Shown piece after piece: positions 37,798 to 62,345 of a stretch of DNA of 64,000 nucleotides. The stretch is from a virus. Location of the stretch: positions 72,410 through 136,409 of the IMG/VR virus record IMGVR_UViG_3300025120_014916; one strand, 5' to 3'. The translations under genes and the position numbers were made by a program. Numbering within the stretch: the stretch's first letter is position 1; the number at the start of each line of letters is the position of its first letter. Below the pieces are notes generated by a model. The model was not told the DNA's origin, searched no databases, and saw only the letters and a list, made by a program, of their open reading frames with translations.

Positions 37798-40700
37798 TCA
37801 AGTACCGAACGTCTTAACACCGTAAAGTCTTACTAGCCATTTCCCTGCGCCGTAAGTTCCTGCGTCAGACGTACCACCGTTTCCATTAGCAAGATATAAA
37901 TAATAGTTATGAAGTCCATTTGTATATGCAGGATCTGTTGATCCTGGAAATGGGCCAATTTGTTCTTTATACTTACTTACAATCCAGTCGCCATCTGCAT
38001 CAATTAATTTTGCAAAATCTCCACCAACTCCGCCACCTTCTGGTTGAAGATCTGATTTTGCATAAAGGTCTAAGTCGGGTTCTCCTGTTGTTGGAGCTTC
38101 TACACAAATCATTTCTGCCTTATATATTAAACCGTTTACTCCTGAATTAAGCCTTGCGAAATATGCGTTAGCTGCACCGGAACTGTCGCCTATTATTCTT
38201 GCACCTGATCCGGCTGTTGACACCATATTATCAATATTTATTTTAAACGTTGTAACAACTTCATTGTTTATTTCTTGAACGTCAGCAGTTGGAGCGCCGT
38301 CCTCTCCGCCATCGAAACCATTACCACCAGCTGTTGTTGTACCAGCGTTCATTGTTACAGCGCCGCCATGATTAATTTCTAGTTTTGCAGCAACACTTGT
38401 TGCGTCTTCAGACTTAGCTGTAAAAAACGCTAGTTTTGTTTGGTTGTTAGCTGAATCAAATTCAGCTTCTGCGATTGCCTGAATAGAAGCACAAATCTCT
38501 TGTGCATCTGTTCCAGATTCACCAATTGCCTGAAAATCTATTTGACCAACAACTTCATCAGCAACTAATGCTGCCTCACTAGATAATAAATTAAGCCTGA
38601 CTGGACTGTTATCACCTGTTGGGATTCCTAAAATAGTGAATCCGGCTGCAGGTACGTGGGCTACAAGAGAATTTGATCCGTCTTCGTCATATTCAATATA
38701 AGCATCTGAATCTGTTCCAAATAGTAACTTTTTATCGTCTTGTATTAACACATCCTTGAAGAATGTAACAAGCTCAGAGCCACCTGTTGTTGCAAACTTT
38801 GCATAAAGATTACTGCCTTCTTTGATTACTAGTGCATCAGCTTGATTATCCGGTACTAATATTGCATTTTCACCTGCTTTAGAAAACTCGAGGGTACCTC
38901 CTGCGATTTCCAAATCGGTTCCAATTGTTAAGGGAGATCCACCGTTAAGTGACCCAGAAATTACAACGTCGCCACCGAATACTGCAGTTCCTAAGGTTGC
39001 TGTACCTCTAGAGCCTATCGATCCCGACACGAAGAAGTTAGTATCTGCGTAGAGAGATTCATTAATAGAGTTTGGTGACCCGTTAACACCTGATAGAATC
39101 AATACTCTTTTTGATTCTTTTATTCTAAATGTTTCTTGGTAAGGGTTTACGGTATTGCCTGAGCCGGCTGCGAGCGCTGATTGAAATATAATGTCGCCGC
39201 CCGAAGCACTACCTTTACCTCGGCCTGCATTTAGAAATAGATCACCACCACCAAGATTATTATTACCACCAGCGGTCGCATTACCTGCATCGATGATAAA
39301 TTTTCTACCTGCAACGTTGTTTGCAACCGTCGCTGATTCTATTGTTGCATCATTTGTATTTATTGTATCACCCAATATAACTGTGGGTATTCCGCCTCCG
39401 TTAACAACCAGTTTACCGCCCACAAGCATTGAAGATTGAACATGAACTGAATCATCTGCAGAAGATCCGGAAAGAATAACTTTGGCTGTATTTGATTTAA
39501 TAGTAACGCCACCTGCTGTCGACTCAATTTTAATAGCGTCATCTGCATTTCCGGATGTATTTGTTAACGATATCTTTTCATTAGCCGCAGTTCCGTGTGG
39601 AGTAAACACCATTTCAGTGGCTGAGGTTGGTCCTATTTTTAATGTTTTTCCATTTATCAAATTAGGTGCTATAAGCATGTCACCAGCAGTAGCGTCTATC
39701 TTAATAGCATCAGTGCCAGTACCGGCTGCAGTAATAATAATTGATGAATCATTTGCACCAACTTGTGCAATTGTTAAATCTTCTCCTGCAGTAGAAGAAG
39801 TGACAGTCAAGTTTACATCATCTGTTCCGTCGATAGATATTGTGGTTCCATCAATTGTCACAGCACCGGAAGCATTTACATCAAAAGTCGTACCATCCAT
39901 CGTGAACGTTCCATCAATATCTACATTATCTAGATTTGAAACTCCATCAACAGCAAGATCAGTTGTAACTGTCAAATCACCTGCAATAGTTGTTGTTGAA
40001 GCTGCACCTGCTGCTATTGTGACATCAACTTGTCCATCTGTTGCGTGTTCACCTTCAAGCTTAAGACCTGTTGTCATTGCAGTATTTGTACCGTCACTTT
40101 CTGCAACTTGTAATTCTAATGTTCCCGCCTCGTCTGTTTCATCAGATTCGCTAATAGAAGCAACAATTCCAGCAAACTGTGTGCTATTGTTTCCTTCGTC
40201 TTCACCAAAGAATGTAATCTTACCAAGTATTTCACCGTCCTCTGTGTCTGCTGCGTCCTTAAGAAATTGCAATTCACCAGAAGAGGCTGCTGTTGTATTT
40301 GTTGTTTTGATTGTTACAACAGGTTTTCCATCGGTTGCGGAATCAATTATAACTGCCGGACTAGTAACTGTCAATGATGTCGAAGCTGCAATTGATTGTG
40401 TCGCTGCGGTTGTTGTCATTGAAGTTGCATCTAAAGTTGCTGCACCCGTTACATCAATATCTAGAATACCTGCATCAATTTGAACTTCAGATGCCGAATC
40501 TGCGTCTGCATCTATATGAAATGCGACGCCGGCAGTATGCGCAGTCTTTAAAATAATGTTACCAGCAGCGTTAGTGGATTCAATATCAATTGGATGAGCG
40601 CCAGTTGAAGTGAAATCTAGACCACCAGCAGAAGTAATGCCAACTGCTGCTGCTGCAGTTCCTGCAGAATCGATTGTTATAGCAGTACCCGCATCAAGTT

Positions 40701-43629
40701 CAACAGTTGCTGCGTTAACGTCTACTTTTGTAGAAGTATCATGACCCACTGTTATTGTTTTTGCTTGACTGATATTACCAATTTCGATATTTGATGTATT
40801 AGCATCTGCTCCAATCTTTATAATTTCAGATGATCCGAGCTGGAGACCGGGAGCTGCGTCTTTAATAAAGTGCTCTTGCCCTGTACCAATTTTAAGTGAT
40901 TTTTCATCAGCTATGTATATATCGCCCCATTCATTTGTTGTAGTTCCTAGGTCACTTCCGCCAGAAGCGCTTGGAGATAAGTTTTTATTGACTTCAAATG
41001 AGTTGGTATCATTCTGCCACTGGAATGTTTTATCAGTAGTACCTTTAATAGTAATACCGCCGCCATCTGCTGTAGTATCTGATGCAGCTGCAACATTAAA
41101 AACCATTGAACCTGCTGAACTGTGATTGGCATCAAGTGTTATTTGAGTTGCACTATTAATTGCAGTAATTGTCCTTGTACCGCTATTTGCTGTATTGAAA
41201 GCACCGGTTCCGGAGGCTTTTACAACTGTTTGACCAATAATCATTCCGGTGGTCGATGCCACATTAACAGTTGCATTTCCCGTGGTTAGATTAGATGTTG
41301 CACTTACACTAGAAATTGCTACAACTGATCCTAATTCTATATTTTTATCATCAACTATCAATGTTGAACTGTTAACAGTCGTTGTTGTGCCATTAACTAC
41401 TAGATCACCTGCTACTACAACTTCGCCAGTTGATGATATTGTAAGTCTGTCTGTATTGCTTCCTGCATCAAATCTGATTTTGTCAGTGCTATGATCATAA
41501 TAAATTTGTCCGGATGCTGCAGCTGCGTTATCGCCAAATTGAATCAAACCAATATTGTTCGCAGAGCCTACCAACTGAATAGCTGGCCTTGCGTCATCTT
41601 CACTAATTACTGTTGCTGTTGTTGAATATACACCTCCTGATGATTGGTCACGTTTTGCATGGACCTCAGCTTGTGCCTGTTCTGTTCCGGCGCCTAGGCG
41701 TTCAACACTAAGATTAGCTTTTGTAAATGTCAGGTCGCCAGTACTTGCTCCTGTTGCTGTTGTTGTCCCAAGAGCAAACTCATCACGAGATTCATCCCAG
41801 ATAAATGCGGCATTATCGCTAGAGCCTCTTTCAATTATAAAGCCGGCGTCACCTGAAGGTGTTCCGGTGGTTCCATTTGCTAATTCAATTAATTTATCTG
41901 AAGTTTTGACGCTTCCATCGAAAATTGATGGGCCTACGACTGTAAATGTATTTGAACCTGATACTGTCATCGAACCGGTTACAGTCATTGAACCTGATAT
42001 GGAAAGGTTTGCACCTACATTAGATCCGGATGCTGCTACTATTTCTACGTTACCGGAGACTATTAATGCATCATTTGATCCAGAAGCACCTATCTTAAGT
42101 GGTGATGATCCCCTGAGTTCACCTTTTACTACTTGGTCACCCTCAACTACGAAAGTAGTGGCTTCACCAAACCTTCTTACTGTTATAACTTCAATGTTTC
42201 TAGAATTAAATCCAACTCCATCAACAACACGAGTAGTCGCATTTCGATGATCCGGATCACTTAGTACAATTAATTCTTGCAAGTCTGTGGTTGTCGTTCC
42301 TTCTGGAACAAAGCAAGGTTTTTGGAATATTGTTCCGGAAACAACTAAGTCACCTGCAATTACAGTTACCCCTGATGTTGCAGGTAGTCTTCCTGTTGTA
42401 CCACACGCCCCAGATATATAAGTACTGATATCTGATGGAAGGGCTGTTGTTGCAGCATTCAAACCGTAACTCTTAGTTGCAGCAACTCCGCCACCCTGAA
42501 TAACAACTTGATTTGTGCTACCGTCAACTAAAATAGCACCTTGCTTTTTTACTGGTGCACCTGAAATAATAGAAGAGCCCTCAACACGGAAATCTGCAGT
42601 TTTACCGTCTTCATTGAAAACTGCAATATTTGATGCAGCAACAATAAAGTTAGAACCTGAGATTATTGTTCTTTTAAGACCGCCGCCGGCGTAGGTTGAA
42701 CCAAAACCAATTACAACTTCACCAGTATTTGAACTGGTTAGGCTTTGTCCTATTACAGTGCTATAGTTTTGTTCTGTTTTGTTAAATATTCCACCCATAA
42801 CATTAGAGTACGATCCGGATACCTTATTATAAGCCCCACCAAATATTCCTGAAAAATCAGAGCCACCTGAAGCTAGATTAGTTGTTCCAGATATGTGATT
42901 ATCTCCGCCTCCAACAATTACACTTGCACTTGAACCTGAGATAAGATTGTTCTTTCCGCCGAATATTGCATTTTTTGTATTTGACGTCAATTGTGTTGGC
43001 TTAGTTGCGTTACCAAAACCTCCAACAACAGCATCATGCTCTCCTGAACCGGTTACTTTATTACCAAATGCAATACTATTTGTCCCAGAAGCTAATGGGC
43101 CATCACCAATAGCAACTGAATGTGTACCTGCTGCTAGCGGGTCTAATGCTGGTGTACCATTATATTCGTCATAATAGTGAAGACCTTCAAGCACATCATT
43201 TGTTATTGTACTTTTAATTGTTAGCTGACCATTTGATGCAGAAGTAATTTGAATTCCTGCAGCTGCAACAAGATATGAAACACCGTCAGCTGTATGGTGA
43301 ATGGATCCACTTATAGACCCACCGAAGTTGCGGCCGGCGTCTTTAACAACAAGGGATCCGGAAATATAAGTATCGCCTTGAAGTAATACTGCTCCACCGT
43401 TTGAGCCGTCCTTAGAAGTCTGTGAACCACTTATAAAAATTGATACATCATTTCCGATATCTGTATATGCAGGCGCAGCTGGATTACCTCCAAGCTCATT
43501 TGGCGCTACTGACTCACTATAAACAGAAAGTTCTAGTTTTTTATGAACTATACCGCCGGAAGGCGAGCTTCCTGTCATTATTACTTTAGCTGTTCTTATT
43601 TGATTAGCTGTAAAATCTCTAACTGCCAT
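37798..43629 (-). CDS. Giant modular tail fibre / receptor-binding protein (1943 aa)
   Basis: G/S/T/A-rich; YadA-head-like repeats (SVAIG..ASG.NSIAFG, GG.NN.ISG); repeated GD.VISGSL, D.K.IEL and fibre knob modules; higher GC than neighbours. Confidence 0.8.
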   Translation of the reverse strand: MAVRDFTANQIRTAKVIMTGSSPSGGIVHKKLELSVYSESVAPNELGGNPAAPAYTDIGNDVSIFISGSQTSKDGSNGGAVLLQGDTYISGSLVVKDAGRNFGGSISGSIHHTADGVSYLVAAAGIQITSASNGQLTIKSTITNDVLEGLHYYDEYNGTPALDPLAAGTHSVAIGDGPLASGTNSIAFGNKVTGSGEHDAVVGGFGNATKPTQLTSNTKNAIFGGKNNLISGSSASVIVGGGDNHISGTTNLASGGSDFSGIFGGAYNKVSGSYSNVMGGIFNKTEQNYSTVIGQSLTSSNTGEVVIGFGSTYAGGGLKRTIISGSNFIVAASNIAVFNEDGKTADFRVEGSSIISGAPVKKQGAILVDGSTNQVVIQGGGVAATKSYGLNAATTALPSDISTYISGACGTTGRLPATSGVTVIAGDLVVSGTIFQKPCFVPEGTTTTDLQELIVLSDPDHRNATTRVVDGVGFNSRNIEVITVRRFGEATTFVVEGDQVVKGELRGSSPLKIGASGSNDALIVSGNVEIVAASGSNVGANLSISGSMTVTGSMTVSGSNTFTVVGPSIFDGSVKTSDKLIELANGTTGTPSGDAGFIIERGSSDNAAFIWDESRDEFALGTTTATGASTGDLTFTKANLSVERLGAGTEQAQAEVHAKRDQSSGGVYSTTATVISEDDARPAIQLVGSANNIGLIQFGDNAAAASGQIYYDHSTDKIRFDAGSNTDRLTISSTGEVVVAGDLVVNGTTTTVNSSTLIVDDKNIELGSVVAISSVSATSNLTTGNATVNVASTTGMIIGQTVVKASGTGAFNTANSGTRTITAINSATQITLDANHSSAGSMVFNVAAASDTTADGGGITIKGTTDKTFQWQNDTNSFEVNKNLSPSASGGSDLGTTTNEWGDIYIADEKSLKIGTGQEHFIKDAAPGLQLGSSEIIKIGADANTSNIEIGNISQAKTITVGHDTSTKVDVNAATVELDAGTAITIDSAGTAAAAVGITSAGGLDFTSTGAHPIDIESTNAAGNIILKTAHTAGVAFHIDADADSASEVQIDAGILDIDVTGAATLDATSMTTTAATQSIAASTSLTVTSPAVIIDSATDGKPVVTIKTTNTTAASSGELQFLKDAADTEDGEILGKITFFGEDEGNNSTQFAGIVASISESDETDEAGTLELQVAESDGTNTAMTTGLKLEGEHATDGQVDVTIAAGAASTTTIAGDLTVTTDLAVDGVSNLDNVDIDGTFTMDGTTFDVNASGAVTIDGTTISIDGTDDVNLTVTSSTAGEDLTIAQVGANDSSIIITAAGTGTDAIKIDATAGDMLIAPNLINGKTLKIGPTSATEMVFTPHGTAANEKISLTNTSGNADDAIKIESTAGGVTIKSNTAKVILSGSSADDSVHVQSSMLVGGKLVVNGGGIPTVILGDTINTNDATIESATVANNVAGRKFIIDAGNATAGGNNNLGGGDLFLNAGRGKGSASGGDIIFQSALAAGSGNTVNPYQETFRIKESKRVLILSGVNGSPNSINESLYADTNFFVSGSIGSRGTATLGTAVFGGDVVISGSLNGGSPLTIGTDLEIAGGTLEFSKAGENAILVPDNQADALVIKEGSNLYAKFATTGGSELVTFFKDVLIQDDKKLLFGTDSDAYIEYDEDGSNSLVAHVPAAGFTILGIPTGDNSPVRLNLLSSEAALVADEVVGQIDFQAIGESGTDAQEICASIQAIAEAEFDSANNQTKLAFFTAKSEDATSVAAKLEINHGGAVTMNAGTTTAGGNGFDGGEDGAPTADVQEINNEVVTTFKINIDNMVSTAGSGARIIGDSSGAANAYFARLNSGVNGLIYKAEMICVEAPTTGEPDLDLYAKSDLQPEGGGVGGDFAKLIDADGDWIVSKYKEQIGPFPGSTDPAYTNGLHNYYLYLANGNGGTSDAGTYGAGKWLVRLYGVKTFGT

Positions 43630-53610: not shown

Positions 53611-54318
53611 TTATAGATCGCTAAGATTTTGATCTTCAATATTGTTCATTGTATCGAAAAGTTTTTGTAAAAGGCCTTGACTTCTAAGTACCTTATATAT
53701 GATATTCTCATCAGATAACTCTCCTGCCTTTTCAAGACCTGATGCTCTCATTTTCTTAAGTTTTTTAATCATTTTTACTATATCAGTAGTCGAGGACTTT
53801 TTTATGGAATCTTTTAAGATACTATTAATCTCTTTAGCAACCTTTTTTGATCCTCTTTCTATGCTTTTAATATCAATACCGCTCTTAAACTTTTTAGGTT
53901 TGACTACCCACTCATCTTCTTCTACACTATATACTCCTGAAGATGAGTGTGGTTCATTTGTGTCTTGTGGATACAATTCAACTTCTATACCTTTAAGTTC
54001 TATGTCATGCCTGTCATTCCAGAAAGATTTTTTTGCATTAAAAAATTCTTTTACCAGGTCTTCATCTTCATTTAGAGATGACATGTCTACTAGTATATGT
54101 AAGTCAATATCACTAAATACAGTGTAGTTGTAATTTGCATAAGATCCTGTCATTGTAATGTCGACAACGTCTATAGGGATTCCTAGATAGTCAATAAATG
54201 CGTCTGATATTTTAAGTAATGCTTTCCTAAATTCGGGAAGCATTTCCTCTCCTATCCATACTTTTTTACTTAGTTGATTATGAGGCAAGTGAGATTTTAT
54301 TGTTTTCTTGATGTTCAT
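53611..54318 (-). CDS. Pol-beta-superfamily nucleotidyltransferase
   Basis: MTGSYANYNY..SDIDLHIL (GS, DxD), third acidic residue in VELYPQD. Confidence 0.85.
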   Translation of the reverse strand: MNIKKTIKSHLPHNQLSKKVWIGEEMLPEFRKALLKISDAFIDYLGIPIDVVDITMTGSYANYNYTVFSDIDLHILVDMSSLNEDEDLVKEFFNAKKSFWNDRHDIELKGIEVELYPQDTNEPHSSSGVYSVEEDEWVVKPKKFKSGIDIKSIERGSKKVAKEINSILKDSIKKSSTTDIVKMIKKLKKMRASGLEKAGELSDENIIYKVLRSQGLLQKLFDTMNNIEDQNLSDL

Positions 54319-55237
54319 TTATCCAATCCTTCCTGTATTTCATTAAAGCTTTTTCTTTAGCTTTAGCTTCAATAACAATATCGAGTCTATGTCCGTAATT
54401 TTCTATCTTATCATAAATATAGTCTGAATGGGCATTCAGCACTTTCTTTTTTCCTTCTTTGAGACATGCTGACTCAGAGTAGTGACACGTTGGTACAATT
54501 TCTCCCCACGTCGACACAGCGATGGCAAGCGCATCTTTTTCGCTAATGCCGCCACTCCGAAACTTGTGATGATGATAATCAAATACAATCGGGCAGCCGG
54601 TATTTTTGTAGACTCCTTCATAAAGATCCTGTGTTGAAAATAAGTTTGGTCTATCGTCGTTTTCTATAGTCAGTCTAGATTTTACACTGTCATTGAGTAA
54701 ATTAAAGTTTTTGCAAAATCGCTCCATTGCACTTTTACGATCCCCATACGAAGCGCCTATATGAATATTTATTTTTGCATTATGATTTCGTGGCATTCCC
54801 ATAGTATCCATAATCTTACCGTGAATAGAAAGGTCAACAATACTGTTTGCAACAACATATTCTTTGTTTGAAGAAAGAATATTAAAAGGCCCGGGATGAA
54901 AAGATAAACGTATGCCATTTTCTTTTGCATAGTCACCTGCTCTTTTAAGATTATAAGCAATTTTTTCCCATTGCTGCAAATCTTCTAACATATATTCAGA
55001 TGCCCATGGAAATAAGCAGGATGACATTCTAAAGACTTTTATGTTGTGCCTTTGATTCCACATAAGGATAGGTAAAATGTCCCTTGTATTTAATTCTGCT
55101 AGCTCAGATGCATATTCTACGCCCTTAGCTTTAAACGTTCTTTTTATCATACTTCTATTTGTTGTGATCCTTTGCTTTTTAGGTCTTTCTGACAGTTCCA
55201 TGCATATGCATGCGTAGCCTAGTTGAATTTTTGACAT
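54278..55237 (-). CDS. uvsE: UV-damage endonuclease
   Basis: LGYACI, FRMSSCLFPWA, RLSFHPGPFNIL, NIHIGA, RLTIENDD, IVFDYHH, CHYSES, AHSDYI, IEAKAKEKAL. Confidence 0.93.
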   Translation of the reverse strand: MSKIQLGYACICMELSERPKKQRITTNRSMIKRTFKAKGVEYASELAELNTRDILPILMWNQRHNIKVFRMSSCLFPWASEYMLEDLQQWEKIAYNLKRAGDYAKENGIRLSFHPGPFNILSSNKEYVVANSIVDLSIHGKIMDTMGMPRNHNAKINIHIGASYGDRKSAMERFCKNFNLLNDSVKSRLTIENDDRPNLFSTQDLYEGVYKNTGCPIVFDYHHHKFRSGGISEKDALAIAVSTWGEIVPTCHYSESACLKEGKKKVLNAHSDYIYDKIENYGHRLDIVIEAKAKEKALMKYRKDWINEHQENNKISLAS

Positions 55238-55298: not shown

Positions 55299-56078
55299 GT
55301 GAAAAAAATAAAAATAATGAGGGGTATTATGTTTGGTTTTATTATAATCCTTTTCATATTTGGTTGCATGAATATGAAAAGTGATAACGTAAGCAAAGGT
55401 GTAGAAAACTACTTTAATAAAAGTGTTGATAATAGATATAAAATTGGCATTGACAATTTTGTTTATATGGTTAAAAAACATCAACTAGATATTGGTTGTG
55501 AAGGCATGACAGATATTCCTGTTTGCATACCCGTCATAACATCAACTGCATCCGGTTTAGTTTTTTCATCAGATGATAATTCAGTTTTTATATTAACAGC
55601 AGCTCACTTTTGCAAAAGAAATATCATACCCGGTGCATCTGAACAAATCACGGGAATAGCTAAAGATCAAGAGCGACCATTATCAATACTTGCAACTAAT
55701 GAAGAAGCTGACATATGCCTTCTAATGGGTGTAAGATACGCAAATGAAACCTTCAATCAGATCATTTTAAAATTTGAAGAACCTAACTTAGGTTCAGATG
55801 TATATACTGTAGCGGGTCCTAACGGAGTAGGCGGACCCGGGTTTCGTCCGGTATTTACTGGAAAATTTGCCGGATGCGATAAAAAAAATTGCATGTCAAC
55901 ACTTCCTGCAACCTTTGGATCGAGTGGTGCTGGAATATATACAAAAGATGGAAGGCTTATTACCATAGTAATGGCAGTTACAGAAGGATTTGAAAACTTA
56001 ATATTAAGTCCGTCACAAAAAGACTTACAAAAATTTATTCTTACTATTGATAGTGCGGTAGATATTTATTCTTACTAG
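55299..56078 (+). CDS. Trypsin-like (S1) serine protease with an N-terminal membrane or lipoprotein signal
   Basis: ILTAAHFC, DICLL, FGSSGAGI; hydrophobic leader ending FGC. Confidence 0.85.
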   Translation: MKKIKIMRGIMFGFIIILFIFGCMNMKSDNVSKGVENYFNKSVDNRYKIGIDNFVYMVKKHQLDIGCEGMTDIPVCIPVITSTASGLVFSSDDNSVFILTAAHFCKRNIIPGASEQITGIAKDQERPLSILATNEEADICLLMGVRYANETFNQIILKFEEPNLGSDVYTVAGPNGVGGPGFRPVFTGKFAGCDKKNCMSTLPATFGSSGAGIYTKDGRLITIVMAVTEGFENLILSPSQKDLQKFILTIDSAVDIYSY

Positions 56079-56087
56079 AGGTTAAAT

Positions 56088-56492
56088 ATGAAATTATACA
56101 TTGATAAAAATTTACAATTAAACAATAAGCAGGTTACTTTAGCATCTGACTTTTGTGTATTCTGCGCAGAACACTTAAGAATTGAACCACCTTACACCAT
56201 ATATCTGGTTTCAGATCGATCCAGCCATGGTATATCGACAACAGCACTTTATGAAATAGGTAATAATATATGTAAAATATATTGTAAAAATAGATCTCTT
56301 GCAGACTGCTTAAGATCTGTTGCTCATGAAATGACGCATATGATGCAAGACCAATTTGGCCTCATAAAAGGCCCAGTAAGAGACGCAGGTGGGTTTCATG
56401 AAGATCAAGCAAATGCAAAAGCAGGTGAAATATTAAAACTTTTTGCTAAAAGTAAACCTGAAAGAAAAATGATTTATGAGAGAAAAAACTAG
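56088..56492 (+). CDS. HExxH zincin-like protein
   Basis: LRSVAHEMTHMMQ...EDQANAKAG. Confidence 0.65.
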   Translation: MKLYIDKNLQLNNKQVTLASDFCVFCAEHLRIEPPYTIYLVSDRSSHGISTTALYEIGNNICKIYCKNRSLADCLRSVAHEMTHMMQDQFGLIKGPVRDAGGFHEDQANAKAGEILKLFAKSKPERKMIYERKN

Positions 56493-57133
56493 CCTATTTT
56501 TATATGCCAGTGTGGGTTTTTATATCCTGTCTCATCATTGATATATATCTTTATGTTTTTTAACCTAAACTCTTTAGCAACAGCGTAAATAATTTCGCTA
56601 ATATTATTATGCCCTATCGACCTTATATCTATTGCTTTCCCTGACCCATGAGCAGACACTGGCTGTTTTTTCAGTATCGATGCTGCAGTCCTCCAGTCGT
56701 TAGTACTAGTAAAAGTATCACCAACTCTTTTAGCTAATTTGTCGTTAGCATAAAGACCTATTAGATATTCTGTACCTCCTGAAACGCCACCGTGAAGCTT
56801 CCAGTTATTAAACATAACTCTTGCTTGAGAAACAGGACCTCTAAAGCCACTAGTAATTTTTGGTTTCTTGTAATTTTTTTCTTTTGCGTAAGAATTTAAT
56901 CTTGCTATAAACTCTTTTGTTTTGGGTTTTAGTCCATTAACGTTTGCTTCTTTTGCTTCTTGATATTCTTCTGGGGAAGTTTCCCCATCTTTTTCGTACT
57001 CTTTTTCTTCTTTTTCAATCCAATCTGGTTCCATTGAGCGGACTAGGACAGTTTGTTCTAGAACATTATTTTCTGTTTTCAATATCTCAAAAATTATTTT
57101 TCTAATTGAATTTTCTGATAGTAGCATAATCAA
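56489..57133 (-). CDS. M15-family Zn peptidase (peptidoglycan hydrolase)
   Basis: ITSGFRG..SQ, SAHGSGKAIDI, PHWHI. Confidence 0.8.
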   Translation of the reverse strand: MIMLLSENSIRKIIFEILKTENNVLEQTVLVRSMEPDWIEKEEKEYEKDGETSPEEYQEAKEANVNGLKPKTKEFIARLNSYAKEKNYKKPKITSGFRGPVSQARVMFNNWKLHGGVSGGTEYLIGLYANDKLAKRVGDTFTSTNDWRTAASILKKQPVSAHGSGKAIDIRSIGHNNISEIIYAVAKEFRLKNIKIYINDETGYKNPHWHIKIG

Positions 57134-57135
57134 AT

Positions 57136-59238
57136 CTATCTTATTAATTGTTTAGTTATAGCTCTTCTTATTAATTTACGAAGTACTTTATTTTCGCTTA
57201 ATGAGTATAACCCTGATTCTAATCTAATTTGGATTCTAAGTTTGTCAAATACTATTCTAGTTTTATTGTCAAACTCATCGTTTAAAACTTGTTCAACTAC
57301 TTTTGTTAATTTTCCAAAGTTTCTACCCATTCTATTACCAAAAGTTTTTGCCTCTTTTGCTTTTTTAACTTTTGCCTCACCGTTTCTTTTAATATCAACT
57401 TGCAATTCATAAACTGTGTCTACGTTAACATCTCTTCCAGTTCTGCCAGATAAAAAATCCCGCTCTTTCATGTTGTCAAGTAATCTTTGAGTAAGTCGGG
57501 TATTGAACGATGGAAAAACATCACTTAACAAGCTAGCATCTTTGAATCTTTTTGCTTTTAATTTATCACCCACATTATTATCAACAACTTCGTTATTGAA
57601 ATCAACTCCAATAATAATATTTTTTAAACCTTTTTCACCCATGGACATGTCAATGTCTGTCTGAGTGCCACCTTTCTTCGAAGACTGGCCTCCGCCAATT
57701 ACGACAACACCCGCACTAGCGCCAGAACCACCAGAACCGCCGGCGCTGCTAGGTTCCATCTCACCCGGCTGTTGTGTACCAAAATATACATTGCCGTAGT
57801 ACGCGTCAAGTGAAAAGGCGAGAGCACCACACTCGCTTTTTGTGTAACCCGGATATGTGCCTATTAATGAAACAGATATATCGCGCCATAATGTAACTTG
57901 CCCACTAGAAACTACATCTGCAATAGAGGTAGTTGAAAAAGTTGAGTGATTTGCAAATACGTGTTTAACAAACTTACTCCACATTCCACGTGTTTCAGGT
58001 CCTACTTTTCCATCTATTTTGATATTTGGATATCCTAGTTTTCTAGAGCTAGCATATGCATTCATGACACCTTGATATTTTTTTATACATTCCGTTTTAT
58101 TTTTCCCTAATCCGTTAATGTTACTAGGTAATGGCGGATATATATTTTCACCACCGTCAGTATCACCACCATCAATAGCTTCTTCATCTGGTGGGAAAGG
58201 TATTGATACCTTTGATGATTGATCCAAAAGATCTTTCCCCGCCTGTTTAAACTGTGCATTTAATGCTCGATACAAATTAGGAGAAAGCATGCTTTCTTCC
58301 TGTAATGTAAAGTCAGCCTCATCAAATGCCATAAATAATGCAGATCCTACTGCCAAAACACCTAATGCAACCCAACCCGGCCCAGGAATCAAAGCCAATG
58401 CAGGGCCAACAACCGGTAATGTTGCTGCCCAACCGGGTGCCGCTCCTGTTGCACCAGCAATAAAAGTGCTTGTATAGCCAACCCCGGCAAACCCACCTGA
58501 ATAAGCTAGACCGGCTGCCTGTAACGTGCCCATGGTTGCAGAAGCAGCTGCTACACCTTTTCCTGCATCTAAAACTCTTTCACCACCACTTCTACCAACA
58601 AGTTCTTGCGAATCAGATACGAATTTTTCTGCATCACTTTTCATTTGTGCAATCTTTTCAGCATCGTATTTTTCTTCGCCTAAGATAAAAATAGGACTAT
58701 CAGACAGTAAATCTTCTAGTGGATCTCTTACATTTTTTCTAAAGTCTGTTGAAGAAAAATAACCATATTCTCCCGCCAGTGTACTAGCAATATCGTAACC
58801 CGGGTAATTTTTTTCATACATATGAGCCACGTAAGATAAGTCAACTAACGACTGTATGGCAGGGTCAGAAAATACCGCCTGAACTTCATCTTCATCTGTT
58901 CCAAACCCTAAATCAAGAAAACCACCTTCTGTTGCTTCATATAAACGATCAGATAATTCTCTTGCTTTTTGTCTAGACATTTGCTTACTGAGTCCGACAC
59001 CTGGAGCGCATCCATCTTCAAAAAGCTTTGCCTGTGAAAGAAATTCATCTTTCGCTTTTTTTGTAGCTTCTGGGTCTTCTTCTAGTTTTACTTTTGCACT
59101 ACTTTTAATGGCCGGCCCGGTATCTCTATCTATACCGTCGGGTACCCCATCTTTATCAACGTCAGTAGCTTCGCCAGAAATTTGCTCTAATATCTTTTTC
59201 CTAACCAGACTTCTAATTCTTTTTTTATTGATTTTCAT
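57136..59238 (-). CDS. Multidomain protein: TSP3-like Ca loop, annexin-like repeat, PGPGW hydrophobic hairpin, peptidoglycan-binding-like domain
   Basis: DVDKDGVPDGID; LYEATEGG..GFGTDEDEV..F...YEKNY.GYDIASTLAGE; LALIPGPGWVALG; IKKYQGVMN..IDGKVGPETR. Confidence 0.6.
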   Translation of the reverse strand: MKINKKRIRSLVRKKILEQISGEATDVDKDGVPDGIDRDTGPAIKSSAKVKLEEDPEATKKAKDEFLSQAKLFEDGCAPGVGLSKQMSRQKARELSDRLYEATEGGFLDLGFGTDEDEVQAVFSDPAIQSLVDLSYVAHMYEKNYPGYDIASTLAGEYGYFSSTDFRKNVRDPLEDLLSDSPIFILGEEKYDAEKIAQMKSDAEKFVSDSQELVGRSGGERVLDAGKGVAAASATMGTLQAAGLAYSGGFAGVGYTSTFIAGATGAAPGWAATLPVVGPALALIPGPGWVALGVLAVGSALFMAFDEADFTLQEESMLSPNLYRALNAQFKQAGKDLLDQSSKVSIPFPPDEEAIDGGDTDGGENIYPPLPSNINGLGKNKTECIKKYQGVMNAYASSRKLGYPNIKIDGKVGPETRGMWSKFVKHVFANHSTFSTTSIADVVSSGQVTLWRDISVSLIGTYPGYTKSECGALAFSLDAYYGNVYFGTQQPGEMEPSSAGGSGGSGASAGVVVIGGGQSSKKGGTQTDIDMSMGEKGLKNIIIGVDFNNEVVDNNVGDKLKAKRFKDASLLSDVFPSFNTRLTQRLLDNMKERDFLSGRTGRDVNVDTVYELQVDIKRNGEAKVKKAKEAKTFGNRMGRNFGKLTKVVEQVLNDEFDNKTRIVFDKLRIQIRLESGLYSLSENKVLRKLIRRAITKQLIR

Positions 59239-59256: not shown

Positions 59257-59931
59257 TTAAACTGGTTTCGTTTCGCCTGAAAACATGTTTTTAATACCGC
59301 CTAAAGCGCCACCAAAACCAGATTTCAATGAGTCTAGTATAGCTGAATAATTAAAACTACAAACAGTATCTTTGATTCCTTGCTTGATTCTAGTTTGAAA
59401 TTCTGTGCTATTTAGTGCGTTTGTGAAAGACTCGCGCATTGTACTGACTAACATACCAGAATCAGAACGATCGCCAAATAGCTTGCTGAGGCCTTTCTGT
59501 ATAATAGCTTCGGATATACCCTTGTACAACATCTCAACAATGGGATCACATGCACCTTCTCCAAAATATTTGCTTAGTTCTGTAATATCAATGTTTTCTA
59601 AAACATTAGCAATAACAACACCTACAAAAGAATCTGGATCATAATCTCCAAATAGTGCTTTGAGTAGTTTTTCAATAACCATTTGCTCAACTGTATCTAA
59701 AAAACCTCCGGGCGCACCTAAAACAGTATCACCTGCCAGACCTAATAAGTCACCCATGATGCCTTCGTTAACTTCCATGCGAGAATAACCTTCAGATAAC
59801 ATTAACTTTTCTTTATTAGCACACCAGGTAGCAATCTTTATGTTTTGTTCATGAAGTATTTTTTGTCTTTTAATTGCTTTTGCTTCTTGTATGATCATCT
59901 TTCTAATTATTTTTCTATCAAGTTTTTCCAC
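59257..59931 (-). CDS. Hypothetical helical protein with the shared leader motif
   Basis: 224-aa ORF with RBS GGAG; leader KLDRKIIRKMIIQE, then LSE and VNE sites. Confidence 0.65.
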   Translation of the reverse strand: MEKLDRKIIRKMIIQEAKAIKRQKILHEQNIKIATWCANKEKLMLSEGYSRMEVNEGIMGDLLGLAGDTVLGAPGGFLDTVEQMVIEKLLKALFGDYDPDSFVGVVIANVLENIDITELSKYFGEGACDPIVEMLYKGISEAIIQKGLSKLFGDRSDSGMLVSTMRESFTNALNSTEFQTRIKQGIKDTVCSFNYSAILDSLKSGFGGALGGIKNMFSGETKPV

Positions 59932-60310: not shown

Positions 60311-60373
60311 AGCAAACCTCGTGTAACATGCAGCTGTTTTGTTATATAATATAAATATAACAAAGAGGTTAAA

Positions 60374-60874
60374 ATGAAATTATTATTTTTATTATCAGCA
60401 ATCACAAACACTGTGCATGCAGGCGATATTTTAATGAATTATTCACAGTACGATGGTCATGATAATTATTGGAAAATGGTTCCTGAAGTCGTTGTGTGTA
60501 AAAAACAAACAGTTTTCAGTATACAGCAAATTAAAGAAGCCCTAGGCGTCTGGAAAGAGGAATATTCTAGAATAATCATTAGAGAAAAATGCAATTATAA
60601 AAATGAATACGGTAAAATTAAAATAATAGATGGAAAGCAATTAAAATCAGATCAGTGGGGTTACACTTACTATTTTTATACTGAAGAAAAAGTCAATAAC
60701 AAAATAGTGAGAGTAAACGAATCAGCACTCGTTCAACTAGACAAGAACGTAAATGACGTGTCGTTATTAATTCATGAGATAGGTCATGCTTTTGGATATA
60801 ATCATTACGATCATCAAAAAGATGTAATGAACACTTACACTAATTTAAAATCGTCAGGCATATATCCTTATTGA
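60374..60874 (+). CDS. Secreted matrixin/M10-like metallopeptidase
   Basis: HEIGHAFGYNH (HExxHxxGxxH) plus Met-turn DVM; signal-peptide-like N-terminus. Confidence 0.8.
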   Translation: MKLLFLLSAITNTVHAGDILMNYSQYDGHDNYWKMVPEVVVCKKQTVFSIQQIKEALGVWKEEYSRIIIREKCNYKNEYGKIKIIDGKQLKSDQWGYTYYFYTEEKVNNKIVRVNESALVQLDKNVNDVSLLIHEIGHAFGYNHYDHQKDVMNTYTNLKSSGIYPY

Positions 60875-61276: not shown

Positions 61277-61324
61277 AAGATATCTACCTTTGTTTACAAT
61301 ATAAATATAATCAAAATATATATT

Positions 61325-62267: not shown

Positions 62268-62295
62268 ATTATACTTATTTTTTTAAAAATATAAA
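62268..62295 (-). promoter_or_regulatory. Candidate promoter TTTATA-N16-TATAAT, 6 nt before the ATG (leaderless)
   Basis: Minus strand reads AAG-TATAAT-ATAGAT-ATG; no SD. Confidence 0.4.
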
Positions 62296-62345
62296 TATAA
62301 CTATTGAACGTTTTTTCAAAAGTTCTGCCAAATTTGCCCGGGCCT

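Follow-up and report, generated by a model that had tools for sequence, protein, structure and literature searches.

A leader-tagged protein with a single annexin repeat in an uncultured marine T4-like giant phage

The locus and the protein family

The window analysed here covers 64 kb at the right-hand end of an IMG/VR record of 136,409 bp (G000, estimated completeness 40%), and the gene under study is a minus-strand open reading frame (ORF) that encodes a protein of 700 amino acids (aa), P0001. Among its genes are those for a major capsid protein of T4 type (PF07068, E=1.8e-64), for a gp21-type prohead protease (G000 C1:41138-41743; Peptidase_S77; PF03420, E=3.1e-28) and, as auxiliary genes, PrkA, SpoVR, YeaH and PhoH, and on these grounds we assign it to an uncultured marine T4-like giant phage. 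A prohead protease of the same type is encoded by a second phage, G001 (236 kb; E=2.7e-28). The P0001 gene starts with ATG, preceded 8 nucleotides (nt) upstream by an AAGGA ribosome-binding site; 18 nt separate it from the upstream gene, and a downstream peptidase gene begins 2 nt past its stop codon. All the motifs listed in a first-pass annotation, made from the nucleotide sequence alone, are found in the translation of this ORF. The main features of P0001 are the following (window coordinates):

57136..59238, minus strand: P0001, whole ORF, 700 aa (translation)
58705..58983, minus strand: single annexin repeat, aa ~86-178 (profiles, VIA-align, Foldseek)
58897..58926, minus strand: extended AB loop, aa 105-114, G-GFLDL-GFGT, a candidate G-x-G-T Ca2+ loop with a hydrophobic insertion before it
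59185..59238, minus strand: N-terminal amphipathic leader, aa 1-18, ending I16-L17-E18, a candidate T4-type propeptide with a gp21 site
57139..57201, minus strand: C-terminal leader-like amphipathic helix, aa 680-700, L-S-E-N-K-V-L-R-K-L-I-R-R... (LSENKVLRKLIRR...)

Direct scans with P0001 alone gave no match in Pfam or PHROGs, and a fold search of BFVD returned no meaningful viral match. Metagenomic data provided eight close homologues (alignment A1), and a HMMER scan covering all of 1.84 billion representatives extended the family to 59 clusters at 50% identity. Two partly independent profiles were used in what follows, one of 33 family members (A2) and a second drawn mainly from distant members (A4). 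IMG/VR scans with A2 (too divergent), with A1 and with the distant member P0025 found no locus, and the member P0021 found one, L011. The whole of P0001 was modelled with AlphaFold2 (AF2) on 65 sequences (model m222cff7841db; mean predicted local distance difference test score, pLDDT, 77); an earlier model from 9 sequences (pLDDT 52) was too poor and was set aside. Two domain orders occur at about equal frequency in the family: annexin, hydrophobic region, PG-binding-like domain, as in P0001, or hydrophobic region, annexin, PG-binding-like domain (alignment A3), as exemplified by L011:5001-6785. Since most of the features described below are conserved across the family, a loop resembling thrombospondin (TSP) type 3 being the exception, they are not due to chance.

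A single annexin repeat with an extended AB loop

The sequence profiles of the family lead to annexins. In a search of PDB sequences, the matches listed for A2 were annexins only, the best being annexin A8 (E=2.5e-7) at the predicted place, and A4 reached E=5.4e-10 with annexins only among the matches listed; all 60 PDB matches listed for the two profiles are annexins. The AF2 model is confident over this part of the protein (pLDDT 88-98 across residues 50-210) and predicts the five helices of an annexin repeat, A (89-104), B (116-123), C (131-144), D (150-158) and E (164-180). When the model was compared with 48,161 PDB chains by VIA-align, ranks 1-8 were all annexins or giardins, at Z scores of 7.3-9.1, in a range where helical domains can reach ~9 by chance: alpha-11 giardin (9.1), alpha-14 giardin, annexin A2 (9.1), annexin I domain 1, annexin A8, a Schistosoma annexin and alpha-1 giardin. 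Rank 9 was the annexin-like domain of astrotactin-2. The whole repeat superposes at 1.9-2.5 Å, and with annexin I domain 1 (1bo9) 73/73 residues superpose at a root-mean-square deviation of 1.9 Å (Z 8.4). The top Foldseek matches are annexins as well, though with E-values of 0.1-1.

The repeat also bears the annexin motif. The pattern in P0001 reads A92...LYEATEG-GFLDL-GFGTDE...E157, in which G111-F-G113-T114-D-E and the acidic ligand E157 reproduce the pattern of a type II Ca2+ site, HMMER aligning E157 with the glutamate of the annexin S-E-L motif. Nothing in the family is conserved better than GxGT[D/N]E and the distal Glu: G113 is kept in 52/56 members, T114 in 53/56, D/N115 in 53/56 and E/D157 in 54/55. 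Given that a Z score near 9 is attainable by helical domains by chance, the annexin case rests on sequence profile, fold and motif jointly. At the level of sequence profile and modelled fold, the annexin repeat of P0001 is genuine, in agreement with the endonexin fold that the first-pass annotation had placed at aa 92-166. Both structural and profile matches are limited to aa ~82-180, that is, to one repeat, and there is no four-repeat annexin core.

Two departures from canonical annexins are found in this region. The spacing from the Thr to the distal Glu is 42 residues in P0001 against the canonical 38, and the G-x-G-T is preceded by an insertion, GFLDL, of 5-6 residues, where the canonical K-G-x-G-T has a single residue. 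Across the family this insertion has a median length of 8.5 aa (range 1-37, the longest in relatives reaching 21-37) and is mostly greasy and Gly-rich. The AB loop of annexins faces the membrane, and such a greasy extension would be expected of a loop that dips into the bilayer. The insertion probably also breaks the Pfam Annexin model, to which three family members give sub-threshold matches (E=5e-4 to 0.025); within the set of 33 members two do so (best E=5e-4), and the member from L011 reaches 15.1 bits where the cut-off is 25.

A leader shared with head-module genes

P0001 opens with a basic, amphipathic leader that conforms to the motif K-[LI]-x4-[LI]-[RK]-x-[LIM]-[IV], with [LIV]-x-E no more than a few residues further on. 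This motif opens nine genes of G000. Three of them are consecutive in the window, namely an upstream gene of 224 aa, P0001 itself and the downstream peptidase. In the head module of both G000 and G001, the gp21 protease gene is immediately followed by two leader genes, and elsewhere in G000 three small ones form a run just beyond the capsid gene. The small leader genes are:

G000 C1:31348-32304 and 40338-41150, minus strand: five small leader-tagged ORFs, 49-160 aa, resembling T4 core/internal proteins

Within the family, the strict core of the leader is present in 39/51 full-length members, with [LIVM]xE directly after it in 35/39, and most members outside the strict core show visible leader variants. 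In addition, the helix at the C-terminus of P0001 resembles the leader and is introduced by a second L-x-E site, L680-S681-E682. It occurs in the close homologues and in several distant ones, and is missing from most of the distant members.

In T4, the gp21 protease cleaves after L/I-x-E (PMC9026906), and the capsid-targeting sequence is a short N-terminal propeptide common to otherwise unrelated internal proteins (PMC9026906; PMC3012670). T4 Alt, an ejected enzyme of ~680 residues, is trimmed at both termini (PMC9026906; PMC3012670). By analogy, we infer that the leader would serve as a packaging tag of the T4 capsid-targeting type; the first-pass annotation had called it a putative packaging leader, and its presence on nine genes of a phage that encodes a gp21-type protease fits that description.

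A further leader-tagged protein, of 707 aa, is encoded at L011:226-2349 (+) in the related 236-kb phage. It consists of four repeats of ~115 aa (…HL..I..LID.G....A.SL.DALGG…), carries a second leader-like motif, NRAGLRRMILQEM, near its C-terminus and has no Pfam match.

A probable wall peptidase and a third leader-tagged gene

P0001 is flanked on its own strand by the two other leader-tagged genes and on the opposite strand by genes for proteases:

56489..57133, minus strand: downstream gene P0066, 212-214 aa, leader MLLSENSIRKIIFE... followed by a probable LAS/VanY (M15) peptidase
59257..59931, minus strand: upstream gene, 224 aa, leader KLDRKIIRKMIIQE, Gly-rich tail, body of unassigned function; a conserved partner
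55299-56078, 56088-56492 and 60374-60874, plus strand: opposite-strand neighbours, conserved in L001 and L011

P0066 is translationally coupled to P0001. The M15 peptidase that had been read from this gene is suggested by its zinc motifs (R96, S158-x-H160-x-x-G-x-A-x-D167 and H206-x-H208, invariant in 8 homologues), which are of LAS/VanY type, whereas its Pfam VanY score is below the cut-off (16.5 bits against 25, E=0.0073). Neither its sequence nor its profile matched the PDB. From the motifs, P0066 is probably a LAS/VanY-type peptidoglycan peptidase.

In every locus where the position can be read, P0001 is followed by a gene for a leader-tagged wall peptidase, and the family of this enzyme varies. 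In L001 the slot (L001:2806-3477, plus strand) holds a leader-tagged Peptidase_M23 (E=5.9e-27), and in L011, whose annexin protein is ~25% identical to P0001, it holds a gene with an S-x-H-G-x-G-x-A-x-D motif. The peptidase slot is therefore a case of non-orthologous replacement at a fixed position. Because the hydrolase family is swapped while the slot is kept, selection appears to favour keeping an enzyme that cuts the wall beside the annexin protein.

The gene order upstream, as far as P0001, is kept in seven marine metagenome loci. The 224-aa partner is syntenic in L001-L006 and is present in all these loci except L007, the most distant, and a homologue occurs in the distant phage L011 (E=4e-6). 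No signal peptide was found in the three leader genes (the 224-aa gene, P0001 and the peptidase), whereas the neighbouring proteases on the opposite strand carry classical Sec or lipoprotein signal peptides. Among the products of these opposite-strand genes are a trypsin-like protease, whose signal is of the lipoprotein type (IFGC), and a matrixin-like metalloprotease that has a Sec signal peptide; the remaining one is a small HExxH protein. Their sequences suggest a set of exported proteases.

In the second phage, L024:948-1892 on the minus strand (G001 C1:101747-102691) encodes a leaderless protein of 314 aa with an Amidase_2 domain and a PG_binding-like N-terminal motif. This gene lies 120 kb from the annexin locus, and from its sequence it could be the canonical endolysin of G001.

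Candidate membrane and wall modules and the C-terminal domain of P0001

The remaining modules of P0001 are the following:

59122..59163, minus strand: candidate Ca2+ loop DxDxDGxxDxxDxD, aa 26-39, TSP type-3 / DxDxDG-like (motif reading)
58324..58566, minus strand: Gly/Ala-rich hydrophobic region, aa 225-305, containing IPGPGW at 284-289 (hydropathy, AF2 model)
57781..58113, minus strand: helical domain, aa ~376-486, probably PG_binding_1/3-like (ESM Atlas, VIA-align, hhalign)
57637..57780, minus strand: Gly/Ser-rich disordered linker, aa 487-534 (pLDDT <50), poorly conserved and of variable length
57199..57636, minus strand: C-terminal alpha/beta domain, aa 535-680, TonB-C/TolA-III-like (fold searches)

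The TSP type-3 Ca2+ loop of the first-pass annotation is exact as a motif, D26-V-D-K-D-G-V-P-D-G-I-D-R-D39 containing D-x-D-x-D-G-x-x-D-x-x-D at aa 26-37. Nevertheless, it is present as a single copy in only 6/65 family sequences, lies in a disordered linker (pLDDT <50) and, searched with Pfam TSP_3, P0001 gave no match. As only six close relatives carry it, the loop is a lineage-specific addition and not a feature of the family.

A membrane hairpin had been proposed around PGPGW. The region is indeed rich in Gly and Ala (31/66 residues, or 47%, of aa 225-290) and contains IPGPGW, but the most hydrophobic helix, at 287-305, comes after this motif (19-residue mean Kyte-Doolittle peak 1.8) and is itself followed by an acidic FDEADF patch. 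The segment before the helix is weakly hydrophobic and of variable length among close homologues, and in the AF2 model residues 214-290 are disordered and 288-306 form a helix. With one clear helix and a length-variable segment before it, a two-helix hairpin is only possible.

The domain at aa ~376-486 is confidently modelled (pLDDT 93-97), with a DG-x-x-GP-x-T motif at aa 408-416 and an extra conserved helix, YPGYT..GCLAF..DAYY. Its nearest ESM Atlas clusters are PG_binding families, in 26/30 cases by features and in 9/10 rows by structure, the PG_binding_1/3 neighbours scoring 0.90-0.91 with TM-scores of 0.41-0.52, and its best fold match in the PDB is the PG-binding domain of SleC (VIA-align Z 5.2). 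Aligned by hhalign with ten natural PG_binding_1 domains from phage endolysins (Pfam-verified at E=1e-15 to 1e-20), residues 381-423 fall in the expected register, V..IQ..MN...DG.WGP.T..W..F against the PG_binding_1 core V..LQ..L...DG.FG..T..AV..FQ, with a marginal P=0.02 (probability 2%). Pfam PG_binding_1 itself matched neither P0001 nor the 33 members at E<=0.1 and gave nothing at E<=10 in a six-frame scan of the genome, and no sequence-level match to the region was found in the PDB. The PG_binding_1 domain that had been claimed for aa 385-420 is accordingly probable from fold, embedding and a marginal profile alignment, but is not recognised by Pfam. Matches of this region to Pakpunavirus genomes by tblastn (E=0.2) proved spurious, being antisense to annotated genes.

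Beyond the linker, the C-terminal alpha/beta domain is modelled at pLDDT 94-97. A structure search of the Atlas with aa 535-680 found TonB_C and TonB_2/TolA clusters (TM-scores 0.50-0.53), and VIA-align found 1tol (Z 4.5) and the TonB C-terminal domain 5lw8 (Z 4.4, 92/92 aligned). The profile of the C-terminal half (A6) gave noise only against the PDB. Overall, the annexin repeat, the shared leader and a probable wall-peptidase neighbour of the earlier interpretation hold, while its PG_binding_1 domain, hairpin and TSP3 loop are weaker than claimed.

Discussion

Annexins are textbook eukaryotic Ca2+- and lipid-binding proteins, with only a few bacterial examples. P0001 shares with them (PF00191; annexins A2, A5 and A8, the alpha-giardins and the bacterial annexins, PMC3894181) a repeat of five helices and ~75 residues in which the AB loop reads G-x-G-T-[D/N]-E and an acidic ligand lies distally. 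Bacterial annexins include single- and multi-domain forms (Kodavali et al. 2014, PMC3894181), and in some of them, as in P0001, a single repeat is fused to other domains and hydrophobic segments (PMC3894181). It differs from annexins in being phage-encoded, in having one repeat, a greasy insertion before G-x-G-T and a Thr-to-Glu spacing of 42 instead of 38, in falling below the Pfam threshold, and in the flanking of its repeat by a capsid-type leader and by PG_binding-like and TonB-like domains.

The comparison with T4 head cargo (IPI-III and Alt, ~680 aa) rests on a short candidate propeptide, common to otherwise unrelated proteins and ending in L/I-x-E, and on a gp21-family protease in the genome; P0001 is also similar in size to Alt and possibly has a second, C-terminal propeptide. 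In contrast to the T4 cargo, its leader is a longer stretch of ~14-19 aa, which is basic and amphipathic and unlike the T4 one in sequence, and it carries putative envelope-binding modules where the T4 proteins are cytoplasmic enzymes or anti-restriction proteins.

The other modules have parallels of their own. With TonB and TolA, P0001 would share an overall plan of hydrophobic anchor, long flexible linker and small C-terminal alpha/beta domain, and with the wall-binding domain of phiKZ-type endolysins a putative three-helix DG-x-x-G-x-x-T module. The likeness to TonB, TolA and PG_binding_1 lies at the level of fold and embedding, with no sequence match in Pfam or the PDB, and P0001 lacks the Pro-rich linker of TonB and the ExbB/D or TolQ/R context of the TonB and TolA systems.

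These features allow us to propose, with about an even chance of being correct, that P0001 is a head-packaged cargo protein that is ejected and grips the host envelope. The N-terminal leader, perhaps together with the C-terminal helix, would dock P0001 on the prohead core in the manner of T4 capsid targeting, and the gp21-type protease would then cut behind I-L-E18 to release the leader, and perhaps also behind L-S-E682 to release the C-terminal helix, much as T4 Alt loses both its termini. P0001 would leave the head through the tail with its leader-tagged 224-aa partner and the wall peptidase, and act in the periplasm. Four disordered Gly-rich linkers divide the AF2 model into domains of at most ~165 residues, a bead-and-linker build that would suit passage through a narrow channel. 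Seawater-level Ca2+ is ~10 mM and is available in the periplasm, not in the cytoplasm. There, the annexin repeat may bind acidic phospholipid through its G-x-G-T...E calcium site with the greasy AB loop dipping into the bilayer, and the Gly/Ala-rich segment and the helix 287-305 may insert into the membrane. The PG_binding-like domain would grip the wall while the co-delivered peptidase cuts it, and the TonB/TolA-like C-terminal domain may touch an outer-membrane or periplasmic partner. The outcome would be a device that bridges the membrane, the wall and possibly the outer membrane at the entry site.

Action at the envelope is suggested by the constant adjacency of the wall peptidase, by leader genes without signal peptides and by the separate amidase of G001. 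Since the order of hydrophobic region and annexin repeat is split half and half in the family, delivery to one side of the membrane is favoured over a fixed bitopic topology. For the same reason, a fixed arrangement with a cytoplasmic annexin repeat and a periplasmic PG-binding domain was rejected. A role as tail tape measure was likewise discarded, as a long distance separates the gene from the tail module and its leader is of the head type.

Several observations weigh against an ejected cargo protein. The cargo proteins of T4 are believed to pass into the cytoplasm rather than to stay in the periplasm. The members ordered leader, transmembrane (TM) helix, annexin have an N-terminus that also resembles a plain type II signal-anchor. 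The P0001 gene sits among auxiliary genes, away from the head and tail modules, and the T4 late-promoter motif TATAAATA is not enriched and is absent upstream of the P0001 operon on the coding strand. No relative was found by tblastn with P0001 and the distant members P0012 and P0025 among 50,697 phage records, so that the family has no cultured relative. With respect to the modules, P0001 alone gives no Pfam Annexin match even at E<=10, the chance level of VIA-align for helical domains applies, the region 376-486 is probably PG-binding-like on a weak assignment from sequence and model, and the equally weak TonB/TolA likeness of the modelled aa 535-680 is a lead only.

An alternative that we consider unlikely, while still giving it real weight, above all for the members with a signal-anchor-like N-terminus, is that P0001 is made during infection and stays unpackaged in the host inner membrane, bitopic or as a hairpin, with its annexin, PG-binding-like and TonB/TolA-like domains in the periplasm and the leader as a cytoplasmic tail, serving lysis (by spanin-like bridging of membrane, wall and outer membrane, beside an endolysin-like peptidase), superinfection exclusion or envelope remodelling. 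About half of the family has the corresponding type II signal-anchor layout, with a leader, a hydrophobic helix at ~30-45 or 100 and then soluble domains; the wall peptidase next door recalls a lysis cassette, the gene stands outside the structural modules, and the TonB/TolA-like fold is typical of membrane-anchored proteins that span the periplasm. On the other hand, the leader also occurs on small soluble proteins encoded next to the gp21 protease, as well as on peptidases that have no TM helix, and the exported neighbours use ordinary signal peptides. Moreover, 285 residues including the annexin repeat precede the helix of P0001, which would put the annexin and PG-binding-like domains on opposite sides of the membrane unless a hairpin forms, and G001 possesses a separate leaderless amidase.

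Proheads of T4 assemble at the cytoplasmic face of the inner membrane, and P0001 could be an accessory of the prohead core that is packaged by its leader and not ejected as a functional protein, for example one that tethers the core to that face and is then degraded or left behind. The leader common to core-module genes, the gp21 protease, the L-x-E sites at both ends of P0001 and an annexin repeat and hydrophobic segment able to bind the inner leaflet would all suit such a role. However, the cytoplasm would be an odd place for PG_binding-like and TonB/TolA-like domains and for Ca2+ sites, and the conserved coupling to a wall peptidase indicates the periplasm; we hold this explanation to be improbable. 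That the annexin likeness is convergent or generic, the region being a helical spacer in an unrelated phage protein, is very improbable indeed: the missing Pfam match of P0001 alone, the Foldseek E-values, the VIA-align chance level, the single repeat and the non-canonical spacing are set against two partly independent profiles (E=2.5e-7 and 5.4e-10) whose listed matches are all annexins, the G-x-G-T-[DN]-E and distal Glu as the most conserved residues of the family, superposition of the whole repeat at 1.9-2.5 Å and sub-threshold Pfam Annexin matches in three members (E=5e-4 to 0.025).

Returning to P0001 as ejected cargo, a parallel is offered by the ejection proteins of short-tailed phages. 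T7 gp16 brings its own wall-cutting domain, which is comparable to the role proposed here for the leader-tagged peptidase. T7 gp14/gp15/gp16 and P22 gp7/gp16/gp20 are internal head proteins for which an exit alongside the DNA and the assembly of a trans-periplasm structure have been proposed (PMC8954989, PMC8402733). P0001, in contrast, belongs to a T4-like myovirus with a contractile tail, shows no detected similarity to these proteins in sequence or fold, and would contact the membrane through its annexin repeat. If P0001 is ejected, phages with contractile tails too would send envelope-acting proteins out of the head, and Ca2+-bridged lipid binding would belong to phage entry in the sea.

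A 2014 survey found no annexins in viruses (Kodavali et al., PMC3894181), and a full-text literature search with annexin and phage terms returned no report of a phage annexin. In the family described here, which is sizeable and was met only in uncultured marine T4-like giant phages, no element is better conserved than the annexin repeat. More tentatively, and in our view doubtfully as a whole, the family (at least 59 clusters at 50% identity) may be a large one of capsid-delivered annexins in such phages, and the first viral annexin family. Its members would be injected along with a wall peptidase and, as third component, another leader-tagged protein, and in the Ca2+-rich periplasm the three would form a bridge from membrane to wall, and perhaps to the outer membrane, by which the site of DNA entry is prepared or stabilised. 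If so, myoviruses would possess an equivalent of the ejection-protein conduit of T7 and P22, and annexin repeats would belong to a pool of phage genes connecting the bacterial annexins with the eukaryotic ones. The annexin field gains a minimal single-repeat module with a candidate membrane-inserting loop, and phages join the question of how annexins spread between the domains of life.

Other observations in the window

Adjacent to the annexin locus, the minus strand at 53611-55237 carries a UvdE UV-damage endonuclease gene (E=9.9e-57) and a nucleotidyltransferase gene (phrog_36119), which are syntenic in L011. An exact motif, TATATTTATAT, occurs on the minus strand at 60349-60359, 61299-61309 and 62289-62299, 23-39 nt before three minus-strand genes, which encode a DUF192 protein, a 133-aa protein and a 97-aa T5orf172 protein; a further copy precedes the gene at G000 C1:34926. 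The reverse complement of TATATTTATAT includes the T4 late-promoter word TATAAATA. From its sequence and placement, TATATTTATAT is probably a phage promoter.

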